A DNA stretch of 44,059 bases from a virus, in the IMG/VR virus record IMGVR_UViG_3300025584_000284. One strand, given 5' to 3'. Under the pieces are notes generated by a model. The model was not told the origin of the DNA. It saw nothing but the letters and a program-made list of their open reading frames with translations, and made no database searches. The translations under genes and the position numbers were made by a program. Of this stretch, positions 12,472-36,854 are shown one piece after another. How positions within the stretch are numbered: the stretch's first letter is position 1; each line of letters opens with the position of its first letter.

Positions 12472-12879
12472 TTAATCAATAATAATGTACTTTTTTAATA
12501 ACTTTTTTGCGTGTCCAATTGTATCCATTGTTCCTTTAGAGACAACACCATTGGGTATAAATGCTACAACTTTATCACTATATTCTGCTATTTCTTTATT
12601 TCTTTTAAAGTAATTCCATACTGCATATGGTTTACCATAATTGAAACTCTCTTTAACACAATGTATATTGTGTGTATAATGTTGTGGTGGAAATTCTACA
12701 TATTTCATATCAAACTCTAATGCATATTTCTTAGCCAATCCATCAGCTCCATCCTTTTGGCCACCACTAACTATCTCTAATTCATCTCCAAACTTTTCTT
12801 TAAGTTTAAAAATAAAATCTTTTATCTTTTTTGTATTTGTATAACCTCGACTACCGACTATTGCTATCTTAATAATCAT
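12472..12879 (-). CDS. SLOG-superfamily protein (YspA/DUF2493-like)
   Basis: Motifs IAIVGSR, IVSGGQKDGADGLA, RNKEIAEYSD and SKGTMDTI. Confidence 0.8.
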   Translation of the reverse strand: MIIKIAIVGSRGYTNTKKIKDFIFKLKEKFGDELEIVSGGQKDGADGLAKKYALEFDMKYVEFPPQHYTHNIHCVKESFNYGKPYAVWNYFKRNKEIAEYSDKVVAFIPNGVVSKGTMDTIGHAKKLLKKYIIID

Positions 12880-15395: not shown

Positions 15396-15519
15396 TTATT
15401 CATCATCAGGATTAACAACAGCTCTACCTACTAATTGTTCCCAATCTCTTTCTGGTCTTACTTCTAAATTAGTTTTCCACATAACCGAGTCCTACAATAC
15501 CTATATTTACTTCCCCCAC
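15396..15519 (-). pseudogene. ugd: Internally deleted UDP-glucose/GDP-mannose dehydrogenase remnant
   Basis: GTG at 15519 gives MGEVNIGIVGLGYV (Rossmann GxGxxG start). It shifts frame at ~15478 into WKTNLEVRPERDWEQLVGRAVVNPDDE*. The catalytic body is absent. Confidence 0.65.
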
Positions 15520-15902
15520 TTGTCTCTTCCCACTATAGTTGCCATAATACCATAGTTACTAACATCGAGATAGGCATCTTCAACAGGTTCGTCTTTTACA
15601 GCTGACTTTCTGTTATTCAACAGTAATGTTTTAACTCGTTGTATTTTGTCATTCATCCTGAAAAAAAGACCGATTAGGGATAATCTTACTTCTTCAGGTG
15701 TTTGTAATTGTGTACCAACACTAATATTGCCAGGGCCGTAATCGTGTTGCTTATGTAAGAACAATTCATATTGTTCTCTTTGAATCTTCTTGAACTCTTG
15801 GGTCATTTCAGGCCATTCGAGTTCCATTTGTTCTACTATTGACAGACTATCATCATCCTTAGTATACTTTCTAACTGTCTTAGAATCTGTTATCACTTTC
15901 AT
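15507..15902 (-). CDS. DUF1599 / nucleotide-modification-associated domain 1 protein
   Basis: Motifs KQHDYGPGNI, RMNDKIQR and EDAYLDVSNYGIM. Confidence 0.8.
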   Translation of the reverse strand: MKVITDSKTVRKYTKDDDSLSIVEQMELEWPEMTQEFKKIQREQYELFLHKQHDYGPGNISVGTQLQTPEEVRLSLIGLFFRMNDKIQRVKTLLLNNRKSAVKDEPVEDAYLDVSNYGIMATIVGRDKWGK

Positions 15903-15929: not shown

Positions 15930-15959
15930 AATATACAACACAAAACCTATATAAGTCAA
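15930..15959 (-). promoter_or_regulatory. Sigma70-type promoter TTGACT-N18-TATATT
   Basis: Read directly on the minus strand; the same motif recurs at 30828-30857 and 44012-44040. Confidence 0.75.
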
Positions 15960-16543
15960 GCTATTTTATCAATTATTCCATACTCTAAACACATTTGTGC
16001 GGTTAGATATGTATCATTTCTTTGAATCTTTTTCCAAAAGGATGCATCTTTATTTGATACTTCTCCTAAAATTGAATTTATATTTTTCTGTAAATCTTTT
16101 AGATGGTCAACACCTTTCATCACATCTGTAGTTTTACCTGCCTCAAATGCTGAACCCTCGTGTACCATAACGGTTGAGTTCGTACTCATTGACCTTACTC
16201 CTGTACCACAAGCTAACAATACCGAAGCGGCACTCATACAAGTTCCAATACAATGTGTGTTTACTTTAACTGGTAAACTTCTTATGAAATCAACCAACCC
16301 CAACATTGCATAAACATCACCACCATATGAAGTAATATTCATATTGATAGATTTTTCTGGATTACATCTTAATAAATAATCTAACTTGATTTGTACTGAA
16401 TATACACTATCAATTTCAAACTCGTGGTTCATCCAAGTAGTATTGGTATCTGAATTAACACCCCACTCTATTTCTTTCATATAAAATGATTGTTCTTTTT
16501 TATAGTCCATAATATCTATTTGTTTTTCCATTACTTGCTCCAT
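15956..16543 (-). CDS. clpP: ClpP-family serine protease (likely start 16531)
   Basis: Motifs ITSYGGDV, GTCMSAASVLL (Ser), STVMVHE (His) and NDTYLTA...YGIIDKI (Asp). Confidence 0.92.
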   Translation of the reverse strand: MEQVMEKQIDIMDYKKEQSFYMKEIEWGVNSDTNTTWMNHEFEIDSVYSVQIKLDYLLRCNPEKSINMNITSYGGDVYAMLGLVDFIRSLPVKVNTHCIGTCMSAASVLLACGTGVRSMSTNSTVMVHEGSAFEAGKTTDVMKGVDHLKDLQKNINSILGEVSNKDASFWKKIQRNDTYLTAQMCLEYGIIDKIA

Positions 16544-16959
16544 ATTTTTTTCAATTCCTTATCAGTTACACCATATTTCATTATGATGGATGTAACTTGT
16601 TCTTTGGTTAATATCTCTAAGTACTGTTCTACTTCTCTTGTACTACATTGAAAGTAATCCACTAAGTGTTCCATTGCCCACTTCTCAACTTTAGATTTCT
16701 TCTTTGATTTCGTGTACTTCAAGAAAGTTCTACCTCTTGGTAATACATCTATATAAAACTGATAAAGATTCTTTGGTTTTATTTCCCAATATTTTTGAAT
16801 CTCATTTACAACTTGTATCCATTCTGATTTCATACTAAGAAATCTATGAACCATATAGTTGCTGAAAGTTTTCTTATCACCCTCTTCAAGTGAATCCCAA
16901 TACAAAGTGTTTTGTACATTTGTTATTTGTTTTATGTGGTCGAATAATGATTTAGACAT
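16531..16959 (-). CDS. Clamp loader small subunit (T4 gp62-like)
   Basis: Motifs LFDHIKQI, FSNYMVHRFLSM, LYQFYIDVLP and FLKYTK; T4-type replisome context. Confidence 0.8.
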   Translation of the reverse strand: MSKSLFDHIKQITNVQNTLYWDSLEEGDKKTFSNYMVHRFLSMKSEWIQVVNEIQKYWEIKPKNLYQFYIDVLPRGRTFLKYTKSKKKSKVEKWAMEHLVDYFQCSTREVEQYLEILTKEQVTSIIMKYGVTDKELKKIWSK

Positions 16960-20320: not shown

Positions 20321-20915
20321 AAGTATTTCCTATTATAAATTCTTGTAATGAATATCTAACACCACTTGTAACTGGTGTAACTCTGTGAAATAACAATGGA
20401 CAAAATATTAATAATGTTCCTTTTTCTTTTGGCATTTCATAAAATTCTAAAGTCTTTGGGTCTTGTATTGCTAATTGTGTAGAACCACCTTCATATTCGC
20501 TTGGAGCTGATAATTGAAGTATTGTAACTAATTTTCTTCTTGAACTCTTACCATTATTAAAATCTGAATGCCATGTGTAAAAATTATCTGATTTATATTC
20601 AATCAATTTTATATTATTTTCTGGTTCTTGTATATGAAGATTCCAAGATAAATGATTACACATCTTAGCCGCAATAAATAATTTCTGTTGTAATGAACTA
20701 TAATCCCCTACAACATAATCTCTCATATCTTTGTGTAAATACCATTCTGTAACATCTCTAAAATCTGTATTGTGATCATCACCAAAGTGGTCATCTAAAC
20801 AACCTTGTTCACTTTTTTCGGTATTCTTTATTCTTTCAACCAACTCATCACACTCATCATTTGTGAGAAAATCTGGTTTACTCATATACCACTGCCAATT
20901 ATTATTCTGATTCAT
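20313..20915 (-). CDS. 2OG-Fe(II) oxygenase
   Basis: Motifs YTWHSD, YEGGSTQL and LFHRVTPVTSGVRYSL. Confidence 0.92.
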   Translation of the reverse strand: MNQNNNWQWYMSKPDFLTNDECDELVERIKNTEKSEQGCLDDHFGDDHNTDFRDVTEWYLHKDMRDYVVGDYSSLQQKLFIAAKMCNHLSWNLHIQEPENNIKLIEYKSDNFYTWHSDFNNGKSSRRKLVTILQLSAPSEYEGGSTQLAIQDPKTLEFYEMPKEKGTLLIFCPLLFHRVTPVTSGVRYSLQEFIIGNTFV

Positions 20916-21417
20916 CTATCCATCCTTTTAAATAATCTGCAAAAATTCTATGTCCTTTTTCATTTGGATGTCCATTTTCACAAAAAACCTCATCTAAACT
21001 ATTTTTATCTTGTGTTATAACCTCATAAAAAGCTTTGTCTGTAAAATTATTAATATTTAAATCTTTTTGTGTTTTACCAAATGAAAAAAATAATATGTGT
21101 TCTACTCCAAGTGATTGTAAAAATGCCTGAAATAAAATTATATCATACATTTCCCAATCATATTTAGAACGACTTTCAGCAGTAAATCCTACAATAAATA
21201 TCGTTTCATTAAGAAGTTTTTGATTCTTATAAATCCACTTCATAGTATTAACTATGATTGTCTCATTACTACAACCACATATTGCCAAATTTATTTCTTT
21301 TAAATTTAATTCATCTGATAATAAATGACTAAATCTCGATTTCTTTTTAAATTTAAGTTCATCTCCCTCAACCCAACTACAACCATTCACATATAGAATT
21401 TTTTTATTTAAAACCAT
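20902..21417 (-). CDS. SGNH/GDSL-hydrolase-like protein
   Basis: Motifs VNGCSWVEG (block I Ser), CGCSN (block II) and GHPNEKGH (block V). Confidence 0.7.
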   Translation of the reverse strand: MVLNKKILYVNGCSWVEGDELKFKKKSRFSHLLSDELNLKEINLAICGCSNETIIVNTMKWIYKNQKLLNETIFIVGFTAESRSKYDWEMYDIILFQAFLQSLGVEHILFFSFGKTQKDLNINNFTDKAFYEVITQDKNSLDEVFCENGHPNEKGHRIFADYLKGWIDESE

Positions 21418-21432
21418 TACTTTATATTAAAG

Positions 21433-23193
21433 TTATTTATTATGCACTAAGTAACCCTCAGCATAATAATTATGTGTTCCATCTACTTCAAAATTATATA
21501 CAGTAACCTGTTCATCACTCAACTCAATAGTTTCAATAGTATGTTCCAATCCATCTACATGAAGTATTTTATCACCAATTGATAAATCACCAGCCTCTAC
21601 CCACTTACCATCAATATAAAATGGATGAACAGAAGTAGTTTTAATATTTCCATTTAAAATCATATAATATCTATCAGTATGTACATATGTTTTTGTTACT
21701 TTAGAATCAACAACTGAACTTGTTCCTACATCAAATGATTTAACAATATCACCTATCTCTACCTCTTCAATAGATTTTACTCCTTCATGCATTTGAATTT
21801 GAGTTCCACCAACGAAACATGGTGGTAAATTATGAACAAGAATGTCTGAACCAAAGTATGTATCAATCTCTTCAACATCTAAGGAATAAAAAGTAGTTTT
21901 TTCATTTACTAACGATATACTATCTATATTAATTTCCTCTTCAGAACTACTTAAAATTTTCATTCCAGTCTCAACATATTCAGGCATTTTAAAACTATAC
22001 TCTGAACCTGATTTTATAAAAAGTGATGCCCCAGTTCCTATTTTATATGAACTATTAATAAGATAATATTTATCTAATTCATCACTACTAAATCCAGTTA
22101 CAACTGAACTTGTAAGTTCAGCATTTTCTATAGATGAAGTTGTCCAACTCCACATATTACTTAATTGAAATGGGCCTGCTGTATCTTCTGGTTGTCCAGG
22201 AATATTATAAGATTGTACAATATCTCCAATTTGAATATCTTCAATATCTTTACTACTACCATCATGCATTCTAATTGGTGTTCCCGTTATAAAAGTATCA
22301 GGGTTATGTGCATAACTTATTTTATACTGATTACTACCACTAACAACTGGTGTTTTTCTACATGAGTATCCTCTTAAATCAGATGAATCTGAAGTTAAGT
22401 AAACACTTGAAGCAGTTGTGTGTAAAACCAACCCTCGAATAACATCTGTTTGTAATGAACCTACAAGTGTATCTGGAACAATATATTCTTCCACTACATA
22501 TCCTAAATCAACATAATCTGAAAGTGAACCCGTAGTAGCATCATTCAAATCAAAAAAGTAATTACCCCTTTTTAAATCTGCATTGGGTATTTTCACCACA
22601 ACATCTGGAACACCTGCTCCATTACTAAAATCTGCTGGTAAATCTGTATATTTTCTTGGTTGATAACTATACAATCCAGAAGAGCTTACATAATTATTAA
22701 AATAATATTTATTTCCAGAATAAGTACAGATTGAATTATTAGTATCAAATGCAATTTTCATCACAAAAACATTTGAATCAGATGAAGAAATTTCTGGGAT
22801 AACAACTGGATATGGGTCTACTAATATTTTCTCATATTCTATATCAGCAGAAGATACACTTGAACTCAAATGTGTTAAAAATCCATCTTGTGGTTTTGCT
22901 CCAACTTCAGTATTATCACAAACAACACAAAGTTTATTATAACCACCACTACCTAAAAAAGTATTTAATGCATCAAAATCTACCCAATTAGTATCTATAT
23001 TTCTCATTCGTAAATGAGTATTTATTTCTGCTAAATATATATCACCATCGTGTGCCATCCAATCATACATACCCAAAATACCCTCATTGTTTTGCTCACC
23101 AATCCAATGTTCACTTTGAGTAAAAAGATTAGCAACTTCTAAACTTTTGTCTCGTAAAGAACCACTATATATTGTTGAATCATAATTTGCCAT
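21433..23193 (-). CDS. Circularly permuted ATP-grasp-like domain fused to two tandem Hint (BIL-like) domains
   Basis: D44/E56-x-N58 (YDWMAHDGDIYLAEINT) precedes VVVKIP...G, VEEYI and DVIRG. Hint1 spans T300-N455 (TFITGT...ILVHN), followed by the linker LPP, Hint2 at C459-N585 (CFVGGT...TTSVHPF...YLVHN) and terminal K586. Confidence 0.8.
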   Translation of the reverse strand: MANYDSTIYSGSLRDKSLEVANLFTQSEHWIGEQNNEGILGMYDWMAHDGDIYLAEINTHLRMRNIDTNWVDFDALNTFLGSGGYNKLCVVCDNTEVGAKPQDGFLTHLSSSVSSADIEYEKILVDPYPVVIPEISSSDSNVFVMKIAFDTNNSICTYSGNKYYFNNYVSSSGLYSYQPRKYTDLPADFSNGAGVPDVVVKIPNADLKRGNYFFDLNDATTGSLSDYVDLGYVVEEYIVPDTLVGSLQTDVIRGLVLHTTASSVYLTSDSSDLRGYSCRKTPVVSGSNQYKISYAHNPDTFITGTPIRMHDGSSKDIEDIQIGDIVQSYNIPGQPEDTAGPFQLSNMWSWTTSSIENAELTSSVVTGFSSDELDKYYLINSSYKIGTGASLFIKSGSEYSFKMPEYVETGMKILSSSEEEINIDSISLVNEKTTFYSLDVEEIDTYFGSDILVHNLPPCFVGGTQIQMHEGVKSIEEVEIGDIVKSFDVGTSSVVDSKVTKTYVHTDRYYMILNGNIKTTSVHPFYIDGKWVEAGDLSIGDKILHVDGLEHTIETIELSDEQVTVYNFEVDGTHNYYAEGYLVHNK

Positions 23194-23236: not shown

Positions 23237-23680
23237 TCATATTCCTTTTATTTCTGTAAAAATATTTTCTTTCATAACTGATAATGCTGGTGTATTCCAA
23301 TCTTCTAATTTAATTGATGCGTAATTATACCCTTGTTTAACGATTTCATTACATCTCAACCATACTAAATCACTTCCCAATCCTTTGTTTCTATATTCTG
23401 GCATTATATAACGATTACATAAATAAGGATATTTTCTATTCCAATCTATAAAACACCAACCACACTCAGTTAAATAAAATGTCCAATTGTCTTTTAATCT
23501 TTGTTTTAATTCCGTTAAATCCCATTGTTTCCAAGGCCGTCCAAATGAATCTTTGAAGTTATCTAACTCTTCTGATACTACTTGTATCTGTTCTGAATGA
23601 ATATCATTGTAGTTTGTAAACTCTTGATACTTTTGAACTTCTTTTGGTTCGTAATTACTTAAATCTATCTTGTAATACAA
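23237..23680 (-). CDS. GNAT-family acetyltransferase
   Basis: Acetyl-CoA motif A (YIMPEYRNKGLGSDL) and motif B (WNTPAL); TTG start. Confidence 0.8.
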   Translation of the reverse strand: MYYKIDLSNYEPKEVQKYQEFTNYNDIHSEQIQVVSEELDNFKDSFGRPWKQWDLTELKQRLKDNWTFYLTECGWCFIDWNRKYPYLCNRYIMPEYRNKGLGSDLVWLRCNEIVKQGYNYASIKLEDWNTPALSVMKENIFTEIKGI

Positions 23681-23965: not shown

Positions 23966-25228
23966 TTATATTTGTTTCTTTATATCATTAATAACTTTAT
24001 TGATACTTATCTTTTTGTAAATCTTATTTATCTCTTCCTGAAACTGATAAATAAACTTATTTCTATAATATAAATATGATTCACCAGATTTTACCAATAT
24101 TTTATCCAAATCTTGTTCTGTAAAAAAGTTTGGTTTCCAATCATCATAGAATTTTCTTTCATAAAAATATTTTTCAATGTTATTTCTCATTGTCCAATAA
24201 TCAAGTTGATAGGCCGTTAACTCTGAATTATTAATATATGCTTCAGAACTATCATGTAATGTTTGTGTCATACTACCATCAAAAACTCTTGGTTTTTCTA
24301 ATCTATGTATATGAGTAAAATTTGTTTTATCATTATATTTTATAACACAATTATTCTTCACAGCTTTAACTATTATAGCCTGCTCTTCTTGTGGTTGAAT
24401 TCCAATTCCACCTAAATCATTATAAATTTTAGCTCTAAATGTTTTAGGCCAAAATTCAGTACCATCGTCTACCCTGTACAATAAATTTTTATCTAAACTA
24501 ACCCCTTCATCTTTTTTAATTCCCCACACTATGTCAAAATTATTATAATACCATTTTCCCAACAATCCGTTCATAGTTTCTATTTCATTTATATAAGGTT
24601 TTAACTTTGAAATATCAATTACACTCTCTAAACTTGTAAAATTATAAGTATCACATTTCGTTACTAATATATCTAACCTATCTTCACCCAAACCTATTGG
24701 ATTTAATTGATGTGGATTTTCATATTTAGATGGATTTTTGAAAGTTTTTAATACTTCTTCAACATAATGATTTTCAAATACATTATCTGCACCAAAGAAT
24801 GCAACTATTCCATCATTAAAATCATCATACTTACTCCATCTATGTAATGCAACATCTATTCCAAATTTTGCAGCTAAGGCTGCACCTTGTATTTCATTGG
24901 GAAATTTTACATTTATTAAATGTATATTATCATATTTGTATTTATCTAATTTTTCTTTAACTACTATTTCAGTATTATCTAATTCTTCTTCTATTGAACA
25001 ATTATTTACAATTAATACTTCAAATTCATAAGGTGAAGTTGTTTGATTAATAAGTGATTCTACACAATCACCTATAAAACTCTCTTCTCTATACGCAATT
25101 ATAATTAGTTGATATTTTACAAAATCATATCTTTCCTGAGTTCCGAAGGGCGCAGGTAGAGCGTTATTAACTAAACTTTTATATTCTTGTTTATACTCTG
25201 GTGGAATTTCTTTTAAATAGTCGTACAT
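23966..25228 (-). CDS. Glycosyltransferase family 2-like
   Basis: Motifs IIIAYREESFIGDCVESL, LIVNNCS, FFGADN (DxD-like) and EEQA. Confidence 0.75.
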   Translation of the reverse strand: MYDYLKEIPPEYKQEYKSLVNNALPAPFGTQERYDFVKYQLIIIAYREESFIGDCVESLINQTTSPYEFEVLIVNNCSIEEELDNTEIVVKEKLDKYKYDNIHLINVKFPNEIQGAALAAKFGIDVALHRWSKYDDFNDGIVAFFGADNVFENHYVEEVLKTFKNPSKYENPHQLNPIGLGEDRLDILVTKCDTYNFTSLESVIDISKLKPYINEIETMNGLLGKWYYNNFDIVWGIKKDEGVSLDKNLLYRVDDGTEFWPKTFRAKIYNDLGGIGIQPQEEQAIIVKAVKNNCVIKYNDKTNFTHIHRLEKPRVFDGSMTQTLHDSSEAYINNSELTAYQLDYWTMRNNIEKYFYERKFYDDWKPNFFTEQDLDKILVKSGESYLYYRNKFIYQFQEEINKIYKKISINKVINDIKKQI

Positions 25229-25353
25229 AATATATCTTTATAATTACTAACTCTATTAAAATTATCCACTTCGCCTATACAACCATCACAAACATCTCCA
25301 TTATCTCTTATTTCAGAATATCTAAATGGTGATACACAAAATCCTTTTCTCAT
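25213..25353 (-). pseudogene. 46-aa in-frame remnant of a SPASM/twitch radical-SAM-type gene
   Basis: Manual translation: MRKGFCVSPFRYSEIRDNGDV-CDGCIGEVDNFNRVSNYKDILCTTI*. The FCxxPF...I...GDV start is joined directly to a CxxC tail. ATGA overlap with the clamp-loader stop. Confidence 0.5.
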
Positions 25354-26294
25354 TTTATTTTTCCAATTACCTCAACGAACATAGCCATAATATTAATCTC
25401 TTTATCCACTACTATAGCATCACTTTGTTGATATTGACTTAATGTTAAAATACATTCTGCAACATGACCTCTACCCCAATCATCTACTGTGTCAAATAGT
25501 AATCTAAATAAATCACTAAAGTCTGTTATTTTGGAATCTGCCAATACTTGTCTAATGTTTTTAAACGAATTCTTTTTATCTTGTGTTTTTAAAATATCTA
25601 ATACTTGGTTCTTGTAGTCATTCTGTATTGCCATTCCCTCATCAATAACAAGTTTACCATTTACAACTTGTCGTTGTATAGAATTTATAACTCTTCTTAT
25701 ATCTGGATAACCACCATTAACTATCGTTACAATGTCATCTACTGTTGCATCCACCTTTTCATTCTGTAAAATATTTGAAACATGAAGTGCAACTTGTTTC
25801 CTATCTGGTGGTATAATTTGAAAAGATTGACATCTCGATTGAATTGGGTCTATAACTCTCTCTACGAAATTGCAGGTTAGAATGAATCTACAATGTTTAC
25901 TAAATGTTTCCATCAAGTTACGAAGTGCTGCCTGTGCATTTGGTGTGATGTAATCACACTCATCTAAAATGATAATCTTCATCTCTGCAAACCCAAGTGT
26001 TGAGGCAAAGTTCTTTACTTTATCTCTAACTATCTCTACACTATTCTCATCTGATGCATTAATATATAGATAATCACAATCTATATTATTAACAAGTAGT
26101 TTTGCGAGAGTGGTCTTACCTGTACCAGCTCTTCCGTACAGTAAAAGATGTGGTAAGTCGCCACTCTCCAGATAAACCTTAACCTTACTCTTTAGATGTT
26201 CATTTCCAATGTAAGTGTCAAGGTTTGAAGGCCGATATCTTTCCGTCCAAAGTGAATTTTTAATTTCATCCATTATAATTTTTTCCAAATCCAA
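25350..26294 (-). CDS. Clamp loader AAA+ subunit (T4 gp44 / RFC-like)
   Basis: Motifs LWTERYRP, GRAGTGKTT (Walker A), ILDECD (Walker B) and SRC. Confidence 0.95.
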   Translation of the reverse strand: MDLEKIIMDEIKNSLWTERYRPSNLDTYIGNEHLKSKVKVYLESGDLPHLLLYGRAGTGKTTLAKLLVNNIDCDYLYINASDENSVEIVRDKVKNFASTLGFAEMKIIILDECDYITPNAQAALRNLMETFSKHCRFILTCNFVERVIDPIQSRCQSFQIIPPDRKQVALHVSNILQNEKVDATVDDIVTIVNGGYPDIRRVINSIQRQVVNGKLVIDEGMAIQNDYKNQVLDILKTQDKKNSFKNIRQVLADSKITDFSDLFRLLFDTVDDWGRGHVAECILTLSQYQQSDAIVVDKEINIMAMFVEVIGKIK

Positions 26295-30932: not shown

Positions 30933-33740
30933 TTAGAAATTAACACTTAACCCTAAGTTAAAGTATCTTGGTGTACCAAGAAATACTTCAGCGTTATGTG
31001 CTGAGTGAGTTTTACTCCCATAGCTATTGTATTGACTATGATCTACTGCATCTTGTACATATGTTTCGTCTAAAGCGTTAAACACATGAGCAAATAAAGA
31101 TATGTCATATCCACTAACTGGTAGTAAATATGAAGCATGTAAGTCCACCTTTGAATAAGATGGTGCTTCCCATACTTGTTCTCTGTCTGCATCTTCATCT
31201 GAACCATCGTATTCACGAGAATCAGGACTCCAATCACTATAGTTCTTATCATAAGAATTCCATAGTGCTGAAATTACTAATCCCTTTACAGGAAAAATGG
31301 TTGCACCAAGTGCATATGAAGTCTGTGGCATATCACCAACATTCAACCCGTCAAGGGCGTATTGATAATCTGTAGTGGTTAAACCAGTTACATTACCATC
31401 ATCATCATATTCATTTGATTGATACTTTCCATGAGCATCACCATCAAACTTCCAAGTACCAAGACTTACTGCTGCATCTATACGAACCAATTTATGTAGT
31501 TGTGTAGAAGCTTCAATCTCAAGTCCTTGATGTTTTTGTTGAATACCTGTTAAGAAAATGACATCAGTATCTCCTGAATCACCTTGTCCTGTGGTTACTG
31601 CTTTAGTAAGGTTTCTGTCTTTCCAATCTGTATTGTAAACATTTGCCTTAACAGCAAATCTTTCAGATTCGAAATTGACACCAGCTTCTGAACTAATGAA
31701 ACTTTCATTATTTGGATCAGAAGCAACCGTACCATCAAAGTAAATCACATTATCCATGATAGGTGGTTTTTCAACATATCCAATGTTAGCAAAAAGACTA
31801 ACATTATCATCTATGTCGTACATTGCTCCACCTTTGAACTGAGCAGCATAAATAGCATCAGCTTTTATTACTTCATCAGCAACTGAAAAGTGGTCTTGGT
31901 AAGAATACTTAATACTTGATAATCCACCCATACCATATAGATTTAGATTATCTTTACTATAATTACCTTGTACAAATCCACCCAACCAATCAACGGTAGT
32001 TTCATTGTGATAAGCGATTATATCACCTAACCCAACTCTTTTACCATCTGGTGCGTTATCATCAGCAAAATCCAAATAATAATCTCCACCTAATAAATCA
32101 CGAACTTCTCGTGCGTGTTCTATACCTGCGGTTCTCCAATCAATACCTACTTGTAACTTAAACTCATCACTAATATCGTAATTAAGTTTAGAAATTACAC
32201 CATAAGTATTTTGACGATTGATACTATTACGAAGAATACCAACTGATTGATTATTATCAACACCATGTGTTCGTGTAAGAGCTGACTTATCTACATATAC
32301 TACTGAATCATCTCCAGAATTATATGCTATAAGACTATTCCAATCACGAGTCCAGGGACCACGACCATAATAAAATTTATAGTCATCATCACCAAGATTA
32401 CCATCAGCATCAAATGTAGGAATCTTACCATAAGTTCCTGTTCCACCACCAGAACCACCTGACCAATAAAAGACTGAACTTAAACTTGTCTTATCATCTA
32501 TTGTCCAAAAATGATTTAGATTTACTAATGGTTTGTGAAAGTAGTTTTCTCTTTCGTTTAGATAATCACTTGCGTGTCTATCTTGTAGTCCACTATCAAA
32601 AAGTCCACCTACACCATACATATACCAGTATTGTTTACCTTTATATGATGGGTCAACTGGTGACCAGTTTTGATTAAACTTATGTCCTACATCTGCGAAC
32701 TTACCATCTTCACCAAGTGCTTCAGTATCATATCCATCTACACTTGCAGCAAAATCAGCGTCATAAGCACCGATATTCTGTTTGTATAGATTTTGTCCAT
32801 GTCGCTGTGGAGCACCGATTGCATATAATTCCAATCGATGGTCAGCATTTACTTGATAACTTGAACCAAAATAATATGCCCAAGCGTCTGTCCATGTCTT
32901 GTCAATGACACCATCACCTGTTTTACGAACTACAGTACCACTTAGGGCGAATTTATCACCAATAAGTCCTGAATTGTAATTCAATGTGGTTTTCAGAAAA
33001 CCCCCTGCACCACCTTCCTGTTTAAACTTACCACCTTTTGAAGCGGAAGCAGGATTTGTGATTATGTTCATCGTACCACCAATTGAGGGGGCAGCCAAGT
33101 TAACGGCACTTAATCCACGCTGCATCTGGATAGATTGAGCTGCATCTGCAACTCCATCCCAGTTAGACCAATAGACCCAACCGTTTTCCATATCGTTTTG
33201 TGGAACTCCGTTTATCATTACTGCTACATTCCTCTGATTAAACCCGCGAACATTGATACGGGCATCACCCGCACCCCCACCTTGTTGCGTAGCATATACA
33301 CTTGGTGTAGTATTTAAAGACATTGGTAAGTCTTGTGAACCAAGACGAAATTCAATTTCTTCTTTACTAACTGTAGTATAAGCAACAGGTGTTTTATCAT
33401 CAGCCCTTGAAGCTAAAACTTCAAGTGCAGACATCTCAAGTGCAGATATTAAAAGTGAGAAGTCTACGGTACTAGCCGTTCCCTCTACCACTTCAACCTC
33501 TACTGTATGGGATGCATATCCAATTGAAGAAGCTTTAATTGTATAAGTTCCTGCCCCTAAATCAATAGAGTAAGCTCCATCTGCATCAGCAGATGTACCT
33601 AAATCAGTTCCTTGTACTACAATATCAGCCCCAATCAATGGGTTCTTTTCTGTATCTGTAACTGTTCCGACTACCTGCCCATATAAGAACATTGGCATCA
33701 TCATTGTTAAAAATACAGATATTAGATTATTTTTTTTCAT
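30933..33740 (-). CDS. TonB-dependent outer-membrane receptor (signal peptide, carboxypeptidase-regulatory-like domain, plug, beta-barrel)
   Basis: Signal peptide ending LYG-Q; motifs GTVTD...PLIGADIVVQGT and plug RINVRGF...VMINGVPQND; barrel strands ending PRYFNLGLSVNF (terminal Phe). Confidence 0.93.
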   Translation of the reverse strand: MKKNNLISVFLTMMMPMFLYGQVVGTVTDTEKNPLIGADIVVQGTDLGTSADADGAYSIDLGAGTYTIKASSIGYASHTVEVEVVEGTASTVDFSLLISALEMSALEVLASRADDKTPVAYTTVSKEEIEFRLGSQDLPMSLNTTPSVYATQQGGGAGDARINVRGFNQRNVAVMINGVPQNDMENGWVYWSNWDGVADAAQSIQMQRGLSAVNLAAPSIGGTMNIITNPASASKGGKFKQEGGAGGFLKTTLNYNSGLIGDKFALSGTVVRKTGDGVIDKTWTDAWAYYFGSSYQVNADHRLELYAIGAPQRHGQNLYKQNIGAYDADFAASVDGYDTEALGEDGKFADVGHKFNQNWSPVDPSYKGKQYWYMYGVGGLFDSGLQDRHASDYLNERENYFHKPLVNLNHFWTIDDKTSLSSVFYWSGGSGGGTGTYGKIPTFDADGNLGDDDYKFYYGRGPWTRDWNSLIAYNSGDDSVVYVDKSALTRTHGVDNNQSVGILRNSINRQNTYGVISKLNYDISDEFKLQVGIDWRTAGIEHAREVRDLLGGDYYLDFADDNAPDGKRVGLGDIIAYHNETTVDWLGGFVQGNYSKDNLNLYGMGGLSSIKYSYQDHFSVADEVIKADAIYAAQFKGGAMYDIDDNVSLFANIGYVEKPPIMDNVIYFDGTVASDPNNESFISSEAGVNFESERFAVKANVYNTDWKDRNLTKAVTTGQGDSGDTDVIFLTGIQQKHQGLEIEASTQLHKLVRIDAAVSLGTWKFDGDAHGKYQSNEYDDDGNVTGLTTTDYQYALDGLNVGDMPQTSYALGATIFPVKGLVISALWNSYDKNYSDWSPDSREYDGSDEDADREQVWEAPSYSKVDLHASYLLPVSGYDISLFAHVFNALDETYVQDAVDHSQYNSYGSKTHSAHNAEVFLGTPRYFNLGLSVNF

Positions 33741-33818: not shown

Positions 33819-36800
33819 TTAGTTTGCATAATCTTGATCATCGTTATCTCCACTTAATGGTTGAATCTCACATGAATCATTATTGCAAAATTTATCTATT
33901 TCAGCCTCTTCATTTTTAATTACACCAAATGAAAGAGGTTTTAATTTTTTTAATTGTTTATTATAAGTTTTCTCATCTATTGCTTCATATGGCATTTGTT
34001 TGTAAGCTCCATAATCATGTCTTGGTAATAATGAAATTCCTTTTAATCTATATTGAAAATAATTCAATACATATGGTAGTTCTTCAGCTTCTGTTTCAGG
34101 ATTGAATGTTGCCGTACAACTAACTTGGTTATCTGCCCAATGTCGTTGTAAGAACGCGGCTAAACTGAATTGTTCCCAAATCGAAAGTTCAGCCGCAGTT
34201 CTTATACCTTCTCCAACATCTACTGGAACATCTACAACCATAGTTGTATTCTCCGAACCAAATGCTGGCTCTAACTTATAACCTGCTTTTTTCAATGGTT
34301 CTATTAATTCAGATTGATTTGATAATCTTACTCTCCGAATATAGAAACGACTTTCGGGATAATGTAATCCTGGAGTTGCTCCTGCTAATAATGAAACCGT
34401 TCCACTTGGTTTAACACTTGTGGTTTTAATTGATTTTGGTATGGCGAACCAATCAGAATATAATTTATCCCATTCTTGTATAACATCATATCCATCTTCT
34501 AACCAAGTTTTTAATTTATCTAATCCATGATTAGTAATGAATTGTGCAACTCCACTAACACTACATCCAATTCTTCTATTTCTCAACATAACTCTATTTG
34601 TATCACTCCAATGAGTTCTACCAAGTGTTACCGTTTTAGCATACAGATAAGCATATTTAAGTGTTCTTTGATAGTCCTCTAATGAGTCGTGATTGTTTGG
34701 AAATGTTTCTACAAGACAACAAAGTTCATAACTTTCCAAACTTTGTTCCAGGCAATTATGGATAAACAAACCAGATGAATCTAAATATTTGTTGTCTTTT
34801 GTAGATGTTATCACACCAAAATTATGTGTATCTTCAACAGTCATATCATAAACATCTTCATACCCATAAAACTCAACTGATACAACTTTATGATTCCAAA
34901 TACCTTGATTTTCCATACTTCTTTTAACATTAGAACAAGAATGACTGCAAGTTTTTCTTTTGGAAGCTTGATATTCTGTAAGTGTCTTATGTTCATTACA
35001 TACTGGACAGTTCCAATCAACCCACGCAGTTCTTGATTTTTTTATGTCGGATAAATGTTTTTTTACTTCATTGGTCATACCATTTTTAATCGATTCAATC
35101 ATAAAATCTCGTTGATTTTCCCAATTTTTAGTTGATTTTTTACCAATAGATTTTAATGCAGAATCTTTGTGATTTTTACCGTACATACCATTTCGCTCAC
35201 CGTAATGACCACCATTAATACGAGTAGTTTCTTTCATCTTTTCTACATTTACAGGGTTATGCATTGGATTTTTATCTAATCTATGTAATCTACTATGTTC
35301 TGATTGAGTAATAACATCTAAATTATCCCATGAATCATTTGTCTTATCAAAATCTATATGATGAATAGCATACTCTTTGGCGGTAGGCATATAACCAAGT
35401 TCTGATTCTGTGATTAATCTATACTGTCTTAATCCACTTGCTTTTTTCCCGGTACCTCGTATGTTTCTATAACCTTTATTACTAAAACTATTAAATGGAA
35501 ATACTGATTCATCTTTTTGTAAATCTCTAAGTTCTTTATATTCACCACTTCGTAACATAATTTTATGGTCAGGTGTTGCTAATAAATTAGAACCATCATC
35601 CAAAGTAAGTTTCCACACTTCTGTATTTTCTTTTGTTTTCCAAGTTTTAATTGATTGTTTGATGACTACTTTTCCATTTTCATCAACTGAATAAACTGGG
35701 TATTGAGTATCTACTAAATCTTTAATTGGAACTGTATTTCTACCATCAGCTACTGCTACTAATGTTTCACCAACAATACAAGGATTTCCACCCATAACTC
35801 TATGGTCTTTATTATCTCCACCATTTTGCATACGAGAAAATTTCCTCATATTTTCTAACCAAGCTAAACCAGGTTCTCCATTATCTACGATTCGTTTTGA
35901 AACTTCTGTATAATCCATACCAAGTTCTGCAAATATACTATTGTTTGAAGTCCACCCATATTGTTCTCTGTCTGGATTAACTTTATAATTTTTTAAATCT
36001 AAATATTCATCATCATGGGGATCACCGAACACAATCTCTGCTGTTCGTCTTACATTCCCTGCTACGACACATTTACCAATTAGGTTCATTATATCCACAA
36101 TTGTAGTTACGGTAATTAGTTCTCCACTATTCTTTTCTAATACTTTTCTTATATCTTCGTGAACTTCTTCTAATGGGTCTGGACCACTTGAAACACCGCC
36201 AAATCCTTTGATTGGTTCTCCTAATGCTCTAATCTTTGTATAATCAAACTCTACTGGGTGTGAACCATGAAAATAACTTTCTAATAATAACCTTAACGAA
36301 TCTACCCAACCTTCTCTTGTGTCTGGAATCTGAAATATTGTTGAATCCCTATCTTTATCTATACCTTTAACAAGTATTTCACCAGCACCCTTACAGTCAA
36401 ATCCAACACCAACACCTAACATACTTGCATCCATTAGAAAACAGAATGGTTTTGAGTAATCTTCTTTAAGTGTTTTAGTAGATACGAATGCACAATTATT
36501 TAGAGCTGCATATAATTTCTTTTCTTCTGTGATTGATGTTCCCATTGCCCATAAACCACGACCAGGTGGTAAAAATTTCATATTGAATATTCTATCATAC
36601 ATATCTTGTGCAGATTTCTGTGCTTGCCACGGATTCCAACCTAATTGATGAGAATTAATCCAATTCCATTGCATTGAATATGTTCCCTCTACAACTCTTT
36701 GGACGGTTTCCCACCATCTCTCATTTTTTCCATTCTCTTTGATACGGGAATAGGTTCTCATATAAACCAGTTCACCTAACCCATTAAAACCAAACGGTGG

Positions 36801-36854
36801 TTTTTTTCTTTTATATTTGTCGATAAAATTTTCCGATAACTTAAACTTTTCCAC
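33819..36854 (-). CDS. nrdJ: Adenosylcobalamin-dependent (class II, monomeric-type) ribonucleotide reductase containing an intein
   Basis: Motifs FLPPGRGLW, LNNCAF, GNVRRTAEI, NP-[intein]-CLEQ...CCLVE, TSVKPSGT and C-terminal CNNDSC. Confidence 0.95.
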   Translation of the reverse strand: MEKFKLSENFIDKYKRKKPPFGFNGLGELVYMRTYSRIKENGKNERWWETVQRVVEGTYSMQWNWINSHQLGWNPWQAQKSAQDMYDRIFNMKFLPPGRGLWAMGTSITEEKKLYAALNNCAFVSTKTLKEDYSKPFCFLMDASMLGVGVGFDCKGAGEILVKGIDKDRDSTIFQIPDTREGWVDSLRLLLESYFHGSHPVEFDYTKIRALGEPIKGFGGVSSGPDPLEEVHEDIRKVLEKNSGELITVTTIVDIMNLIGKCVVAGNVRRTAEIVFGDPHDDEYLDLKNYKVNPDREQYGWTSNNSIFAELGMDYTEVSKRIVDNGEPGLAWLENMRKFSRMQNGGDNKDHRVMGGNPCIVGETLVAVADGRNTVPIKDLVDTQYPVYSVDENGKVVIKQSIKTWKTKENTEVWKLTLDDGSNLLATPDHKIMLRSGEYKELRDLQKDESVFPFNSFSNKGYRNIRGTGKKASGLRQYRLITESELGYMPTAKEYAIHHIDFDKTNDSWDNLDVITQSEHSRLHRLDKNPMHNPVNVEKMKETTRINGGHYGERNGMYGKNHKDSALKSIGKKSTKNWENQRDFMIESIKNGMTNEVKKHLSDIKKSRTAWVDWNCPVCNEHKTLTEYQASKRKTCSHSCSNVKRSMENQGIWNHKVVSVEFYGYEDVYDMTVEDTHNFGVITSTKDNKYLDSSGLFIHNCLEQSLESYELCCLVETFPNNHDSLEDYQRTLKYAYLYAKTVTLGRTHWSDTNRVMLRNRRIGCSVSGVAQFITNHGLDKLKTWLEDGYDVIQEWDKLYSDWFAIPKSIKTTSVKPSGTVSLLAGATPGLHYPESRFYIRRVRLSNQSELIEPLKKAGYKLEPAFGSENTTMVVDVPVDVGEGIRTAAELSIWEQFSLAAFLQRHWADNQVSCTATFNPETEAEELPYVLNYFQYRLKGISLLPRHDYGAYKQMPYEAIDEKTYNKQLKKLKPLSFGVIKNEEAEIDKFCNNDSCEIQPLSGDNDDQDYAN
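34755..35780 (-). mobile_element. 342-aa intein with HNH homing endonuclease in the RNR active-site NPCxE motif
   Basis: Starts CIVGETLV, has block B LATPDHKI and HNH motif AIHHIDFDKTNDSWDNL...EHSRLH, and ends VEDTHNF...FIHN followed by the catalytic Cys. Confidence 0.93.

Follow-up and report, generated by a model that had tools for sequence, protein, structure and literature searches.

Circularly permuted ATP-grasp ligases have been described in the metabolism of thiols and polyamines, where they are represented by glutathione synthetase, glutathionylspermidine synthetase (GspS), trypanothione synthetase (TryS) and the proteins YgiC and YjfC. Mg and the phosphates of ATP are bound by residues D330, E344, N346, K513 and K548 of TryS and by their equivalents in GspS, and the arginine of the R-x-D motif, R328-x-D330 in TryS, positions the substrate carboxylate in both enzymes (PMC2427367). 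The window analysed here, a DNA stretch of 44,059 nucleotides given as IMG/VR virus record IMGVR_UViG_3300025584_000284, comes from an uncultured marine T4-like phage and contains on its minus strand a gene encoding a protein of 586 amino acids (aa) (Table 1). The original prediction, made from the sequence without database searches, had placed a circularly permuted ATP-grasp-like ligase tethered to Hint domains at 22297–23193, which is exactly residues 1–299 of this protein. The results support the folding of residues 1–299 as a circularly permuted ATP-grasp domain tethered to two Hint domains, Hint1 and Hint2; the same architecture is present in eight full-length relatives (68–88% identity). 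The explanation that accounts best for the findings as a whole, and that is considered fairly probable, is a permuted carboxylate–amine ligase fixed to Hint1, shedding Hint2 and acting in an island of tailoring genes.

The AlphaFold model of the domain, built from an alignment of 49 sequences, had a predicted local distance difference test (pLDDT) score of 86.3 and a predicted template modelling score (pTM) of 0.88; a model obtained from the single sequence (pLDDT 34) was discarded. Foldseek returned 37 PDB matches at E ≤ 1e-3, and among the matches listed all were ATP-grasp ligases. The top matches were exclusively circularly permuted ATP-grasp ligases, namely, GspS 2ioa (E 1.3e-6), yeast and human glutathione synthetase, YgiC, YjfC, TryS, 3n6x, 3k1t and Cp1B. 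In a second structure search, independent of Foldseek and covering 48,161 chains, the ten best whole-domain PDB matches (Z 9.7–12.8) were likewise all circularly permuted ATP-grasp ligases. The best of them was YgiC 7uka (Z 12.8, 233 aligned residues, root-mean-square deviation 3.9, model residues 1–299); residues 1–299 of the model were also covered by matches to a nematode glutathione-synthetase-like protein (Z 12.7), GspS (12.3) and 3n6x (10.9). Nearly every structural match at Z ≥ 4 was an ATP-grasp enzyme, and the three subdomains of the ATP-grasp fold are represented in the predicted structure. Classical ATP-grasp enzymes (ArgX, DcsG, LysX, RimK, PurK, Ddl, GshB and ITPK1) were matched at Z 4–6, always on residues 78/86–299. 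Full-length matches to permuted enzymes only, with classical ones matching from approximately residue 86 onward, are expected of a circular permutation.

The presence of ITPK1 (Z 5.5) and PPIP5K2 (Z 4.9) among the structural matches, as well as the phosphoryl-transfer step common to all ATP-grasps, would be consistent with a kinase or other phosphotransferase similar to inositol-phosphate kinases instead of an amide ligase. However, these two matches cover only residues ~78–299 and lie far below those of the permuted ligases, at Z 10–13, while the permuted class, so far as characterized, contains carboxylate–amine ligases only. A kinase is the least probable of the explanations considered.

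The order of segments, on which the assignment to the permuted class depends, was analysed by splitting the family profile in two and aligning each part by hhalign to classical enzymes of E. coli. Residues 1–85 aligned to GshB 247–315 of 316 (E 0.0034), with D44, E56 and N58 on D273, E281 and N283, and to RimK 224–298 of 300 (E 0.031). Residues 86–299 were colinear with GshB 54–228 and RimK 21–202 at E of about 0.3, which is not significant; in these alignments, NK is paired with the (D/E)K motif, VVVK201 with IILKP/LVVKL, VEEYI with LVQEYI and IR253 with DIR. The whole profile is colinear with YgiC/YjfC/Gss, residues 30–269 corresponding to YgiC 90–368, D44/E56/N58 to D102/E115/N117 and VVVK201 to YVVKP. 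As is characteristic of the permuted class, the chain runs from the D...E-x-N segment to the substrate subdomain and then the lid, and the circularly permuted order claimed in the original prediction is borne out by the full-length structural matches (Z up to 12.8) and by the position of residues 1–85 on the C-terminal Mg-binding segment of GshB and RimK. That the permutation is only apparent, owing to a misassigned start codon or to a gene split in two, was ruled out, because relatives align from residues 1–5 onward and the upstream gene of a GNAT acetyltransferase is complete.

The motif residues of the predicted ligase, D44, E56, N58, K162, VVVK ending at K201, G210, VEEYI at 234–238 and DVIRG at 250–254, were confirmed at these positions in the translation and the alignment. 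They are conserved in the family alignment of 49 sequences, which includes 23 long-form members and distant members ~18–32% identical to the query. D44 and N58 do not vary at all, E56 was found in 46 of the 49 sequences and G38 in at least 90%. Among the long forms, K201 is present in 22/23, K162 in 19/23 (plus one Arg), G286 in 18/23, G210 and E235 in 17/23 each, and R253 in 14/23 (plus four Lys); K162 and K201 are retained in long-form relatives at 25–30% identity. The Mg-binding triad of the ATP-grasp superfamily (D/E ... E-x-N) is represented by D44/E56/N58, and the two phosphate-binding lysines and the Gly-containing lid loop by K162, K201 and G210. Conservation across distant family members indicates that this string of motifs is real and under selection.

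An exhaustive search with HMMER across 1.84 billion representative proteins revealed 35 relatives of 450–1113 aa, in all of which the domain is N-terminal, and a profile search added short proteins of ~190–226 aa. A search for related loci that started from the single protein returned close relatives only. In the ESM Atlas, the ligase fold is represented by five clusters, four of them virus-only and one half viral, with 55–101 members each (303–668 aa, with and without Hint, template modelling (TM) score 0.70–0.84); the next match was bacterial GSP_synth (TM 0.61). The ligase family comprises at least several hundred metagenomic members. Among UniProt-derived viral structures (BFVD), nothing comparable was found (none better than E 5.7e-3), and a tblastn search of GenBank phages gave Hint matches only and nothing comparable. 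A copy of the ligase gene is absent from the nearest virus record, G001. A protein-atlas feature search gave a match of 0.77, which was judged meaningless. No description of an ATP-grasp joined in such a way to a Hint or bacterial intein-like (BIL) domain was found in a full-text literature search. In two relatives, P0032 and P0035, the lid/hinge half and the Hint are replaced by MORN repeats (Pfam MORN_2, 1.2e-9).

Hint1 has Thr300 at position 1 and lacks the block-B His with the T-x-x-H motif, while the terminal VHN455 is kept. In relatives, position 1 is occupied by G, H, N, K, I, S or Q, and the N-side nucleophile is absent from every lineage. These features agree with the earlier claim that one of the Hint domains is unable to cut at its N-side; lacking the nucleophile, Hint1 would leave the ligase unreleasable at that junction. 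Where sequence follows Hint1, whether a second Hint or, in P0012, a Cys-rich tail, its terminal His-Asn is always retained; it is missing in the clearly aligned 470-aa members ending at Hint1 (P0014, P0015, P0023 and P0026). Judging from this pattern in the sequences, Hint1 probably cuts only at its own C-terminal side, at Asn455. The ligase and Hint1, permanently joined, would be the conserved mature unit of ~455 aa, and the cut would shed Hint2, which is intact but apparently dispensable.

Hint2 belongs to the canonical BIL/PT-HINT type, with C459, the T-x-x-H motif (TSVH) and the terminal VHN585, and matches PT-HINT at 84.6 bits against a cut-off of 27.7 bits (9.7e-24). Its best relative among PDB sequences is the bacterial intein-like domain 2LWY, matched by the family profile at 9.5e-20; all PDB matches of the profile were to Hint domains. 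Hint1 is followed by Leu456, and Hint2 by Lys586 and the stop codon alone (21433–21438); with no Cys, Ser or Thr at the +1 position of either, protein splicing is not expected. In P0019 and P0024, a C-terminal domain of ~280–310 aa was found, consisting of Gly-rich repeats with the recurring motif GNA(S/T)D.GDL; in P0019 it is placed after a third Hint ending in HN-Thr.

The stretch between the two Hints consists of three residues, LPP, in the window protein and of 0, 6, 6 or 27 residues in relatives, a variation that makes LPP look like a linker. Cys-rich sequences accompany the Hints of some relatives: a 75-aa tail after Hint1 in P0012, a 27-aa stretch between the two Hints in P0045 and a 50-aa tail after Hint2 in P0044. 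A one-gene peptide factory could be envisaged, in which Hint1 (Asn455) and Hint2 (Cys459) excise or activate the short inter-Hint stretch or a Cys-rich tail, and the ligase joins the carboxylate of the peptide to an amine. The Cys-rich peptides of P0012, P0044 and P0045 would fit such a role, as would the use of the terminal carboxylate of peptides or small acids by the closest structural relatives (YgiC/YjfC, GspS and glutathione synthetase). However, the length of the inter-Hint stretch is linker-like, and most family members end at Hint1, cargo-free; this explanation is very unlikely. There is a small chance of a virus-only, self-contained peptide device, in which the Hints would free or activate an encoded peptide (LPP here, Cys-rich in relatives), and the ligase, GNAT, oxygenases and radical-SAM enzyme would make a conjugate in infection. 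If true, it would represent a new route to ribosomally encoded natural products.

Several observations weigh against an active carboxylate–amine ligase that matures by shedding Hint2. No sequence method ties the ligase domain to any ATP-grasp family. Residues 1–299 have no match in Pfam (even at E ≤ 10), NCBIfam, PHROGs or PDB sequences, Pfam seeing only Hint families, after residue 300; no ATP-grasp Pfam family was matched by any of the 49 members, the thresholds of GSP_synth (PF03738), CP_ATPgrasp_1/2 and GSH_synth_ATP not being reached; and the hhalign alignment of the profile to YgiC/YjfC/Gss scores E 0.18, which is not significant. The Arg of the R-x-D motif is absent: the position corresponding to R100-x-D102 of YgiC, residue 42, is Met here and A, S, G or M in relatives. 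Nor could a counterpart of TryS Arg613 be placed in the phage domain, whose lid, moreover, is very small. A purely speculative substitute for the missing Arg of R-x-D is the basic residue at position 146, which is Lys in the window protein and Arg in most relatives. Position −1 of Hint2 is occupied by Pro458, and Pro at −1 slows N-side cleavage by inteins; the cut at Asn455 would accordingly be the likelier event.

The abundant short relatives (~190–226 aa) are a further point against catalysis. These stand-alone proteins match only residues ~12–200 and keep D44/E56/N58, while the whole ATP-binding half is absent: K162, mostly K201, and the lid and hinge half have been lost. Catalysis is therefore not required for this part of the fold to persist. 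In L016, the short-form gene is located between a DUF6071 gene, directly upstream of it, and a gene for a 390-aa GNAT fusion, with genes of AdoMet decarboxylase, EamA, SET and radical-SAM proteins nearby. BLAST and hhalign comparisons with the neighbours, the DUF6071 protein and the 390-aa GNAT fusion, revealed no ATP-binding half that would complement the short 199-aa relatives.

Such short forms occur widely (one of them, P0062, has entries in 43 blocks of the collection and was found on a 131.8-kb contig) and, together with the missing carboxylate-positioning Arg, are consistent with a pseudo-enzyme, in which ligase chemistry has been lost, the domain serves as a binding or structural module (e.g., a virion or scaffold component) and the Hints serve for maturation only. 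Part of Hint1 also matches a PHROG annotated as 'virion structural protein' (2.9e-9), but this match falls on the Hint fold, outside the ligase, and the neighbouring genes encode enzymes and not structural proteins. Moreover, the presence of the Mg triad in all long forms, and of both lysines, G210 and E235 in most of them (17–22/23) at 25–30% identity, is hard to explain without catalysis. A pseudo-enzyme is considered unlikely, and an ATP-dependent carboxylate–amine ligase, by analogy with the structural relatives, remains the most likely function.

The ligase gene is located in an island bounded by a gp44-like clamp-loader gene (25350–26294) and a conserved gene for a 142-aa protein (16531–16959). 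The latter is 49% identical to L007:7664–8107 and also marks the end of the equivalent islands in L010, L011 and L014. The island contains genes of a GT2 glycosyltransferase, a 90-aa zinc-ribbon-like open reading frame (ORF), the GNAT acetyltransferase, the ligase, a DUF6071-like protein, three paralogous 2-oxoglutarate (2OG) oxygenases and a B12 radical-SAM enzyme. The cargo of equivalent islands elsewhere includes sulfotransferases, FabA, acyl-AMP ligase, KAS III, an ornithine/arginine-decarboxylase-like enzyme, SPASM radical SAM and ClpP. In five lineages, namely, the window, L005, L007, L013 and L016, the ligase gene is accompanied by an orthologous GNAT gene, adjacent or nearby; the window copy is 26–34% identical to the others, which are 38–61% identical among themselves. 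In two lineages (L007–L009 and L013), the gene of a papain-like C39-type peptidase is located directly upstream of the ligase gene, and the proximity of the ligase to a papain-like hydrolase shows a resemblance to the synthetase–amidase pair of GspS.

No conserved small ORF was detected near the ligase gene by all-against-all BLAST of small ORFs within 2.5 kb at ten loci, a comparison in which peptides that are so short and evolve so rapidly might be missed. A common C-terminal tag was likewise considered for the island enzymes and rejected, because the carriers of the similar endings GDTFV/GNTFV/GDTWK are the three paralogous 2OG oxygenases. A 46-aa ORF (25213–25353) overlaps the stop codon of the clamp-loader gene and may be a real small gene.

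Table 1. Coordinates of the ligase gene, its domains, its two neighbours and the short relatives
Feature	Position	Strand	Basis
Whole gene, permuted ATP-grasp/Hint1/Hint2 protein	21433..23193	-	ORF list, translation
Transposed segment, residues 1–85: helix, beta-hairpin with D44, E56 and N58, then two helices	22939..23193	-	secondary structure of the model
Residues 86–299: Rossmann-like substrate subdomain, NK helix (K162), VVVK201, compact lid with G210, VEEYI hinge, R253, SGS285–287	22297..22938	-	structure matches, conservation, motif alignment
Hint1, residues 300–455	21829..22296	-	Pfam Hom_end_hint at 301–328 (5.8e-8), AXH
Leu-Pro-Pro linker between the two Hint domains, residues 456–458	21820..21828	-	translation
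Hint2, residues 459–585	21439..21819	-	Pfam PT-HINT 9.7e-24
GNAT acetyltransferase gene, 147 aa, directly upstream of the ligase gene	23237..23680	-	Pfam Acetyltransf_1
Gene of 171 aa, 15 nt downstream of the ligase gene	20902..21417	-	37% identity over 86 aa to the L016 DUF6071 protein
Short stand-alone relatives	L016:8001-8600; also P0047-P0066, P0018, P0021, P0025, P0028, P0031		

The window has approximately 30% G+C, and every gene is located on the minus strand. The best phage match of its T4-type DNA polymerase is that of Microcystis phage Mel-JY01 (44%), followed by cyanomyophages (~32%); a clamp loader, a class II ribonucleotide reductase and many auxiliary enzymes are also encoded. 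The gene of the class II (B12) ribonucleotide reductase (33819–36854) is interrupted by an intein with an HNH endonuclease, so a canonical splicing Hint is also present in the same genome. Between the genes of the polymerase and the ribonucleotide reductase lies an ORF of 935 aa (30933–33740) with CarboxypepD_reg and TonB-dependent-receptor Plug domains; this SusC-like protein, unusual in a phage, hints at a Bacteroidota host. Just outside the island, genes of proteins of the SLOG family (YAcAr/cpYpsA) and of DUF1599, 'nucleotide modification associated domain 1', were found at 12472–12879 and 15507–15902; they adjoin ClpP (15956–16543) and may point to nucleotide or DNA modification.

In the proposed mechanism, residues 1–299 would form a compact ligase, in which the Mg-binding D44...E56-x-N58 segment comes first in the chain, as in GspS, YgiC/YjfC and eukaryotic glutathione synthetase, and is followed by the substrate subdomain, the putative phosphate-binding K162 and K201, the small Gly-containing lid and the EEY hinge. 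If the enzyme behaves as all its close structural relatives do, ATP would be used to phosphorylate a carboxylate, whether that of a peptide, an amino acid or a small acid, and the acyl group would then be transferred to an amine with the formation of an amide. Located in a swappable island of tailoring enzymes, the ligase probably works with the adjoining conserved GNAT. The leading guess for the substrate is a peptide or polyamine conjugate.

The domain represents a phage-only branch of the permuted ATP-grasp class that is undetectable by sequence libraries. This branch is consistently fused to a Hint without N-side cleavage chemistry and recurs with a conserved GNAT in a swappable tailoring island of marine T4-like phages. 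Activity of the enzyme would mean that an amide conjugate is made by these phages in infection, the candidates being a peptide, a polyamine or a modified protein, and in the ligase–Hint fusion the Hint fold would have been put to a new use. The protein is small, looks soluble and lends itself readily to assays.

Among the known systems, the peptide–spermidine ligases YgiC and YjfC (7uka, 7uk8 and 7uk6; Pfam GSP_synth) are the best structural match to the phage domain, with the same permuted order and colinear D...E-x-N, VVK and hinge motifs; they and the phage domain alike are compact, free-standing synthetase domains whose lid is small. In contrast to them, the phage domain is shorter (299 versus 386 aa), does not have the Arg of R-x-D, carries a Hint fusion, is virus-specific and shows no significant sequence similarity. 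GspS (2io7/2ioa) and TryS (2vpm) have the same fold and permuted order (Z 12.3 and 10.4), and their Mg ligands and two Lys correspond to those of the phage domain. In these enzymes the ligase is paired with a papain-like amidase, and in two lineages of the phage family the gene of a papain-like C39-type peptidase is found directly upstream; no amidase is present within or beside the phage protein in the window, and equivalents of Arg328 and Arg613 are, respectively, not conserved and not placed. The eukaryotic glutathione and homoglutathione synthetases (2hgs, 1m0w, 3kaj and 5oeu) and the fungal E-64 ligase Cp1B (9cjn) are also permuted and match the whole model (Z 9.7–12.7), but they are much larger (410–520 aa), contain extra substrate-binding loops, are ~10% identical to the phage domain and have no Hint fusion. 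Classical ATP-grasps (E. coli GshB 1gsa, RimK 4iwx, LysX/ArgX and Ddl) share the superfamily fold and catalytic motifs, but their C-terminal D...E-x-N segment is the N-terminus of the phage domain, and only residues ~86–299 superpose (Z 4–6). BIL and pretoxin-Hint domains (2lwy; PF07591) resemble Hint2 in Cys1, T-x-x-H and the terminal HN; they differ in that no toxin or other cargo follows Hint2 in the phage protein, and Hint1 lacks both Cys1 and the block-B His.

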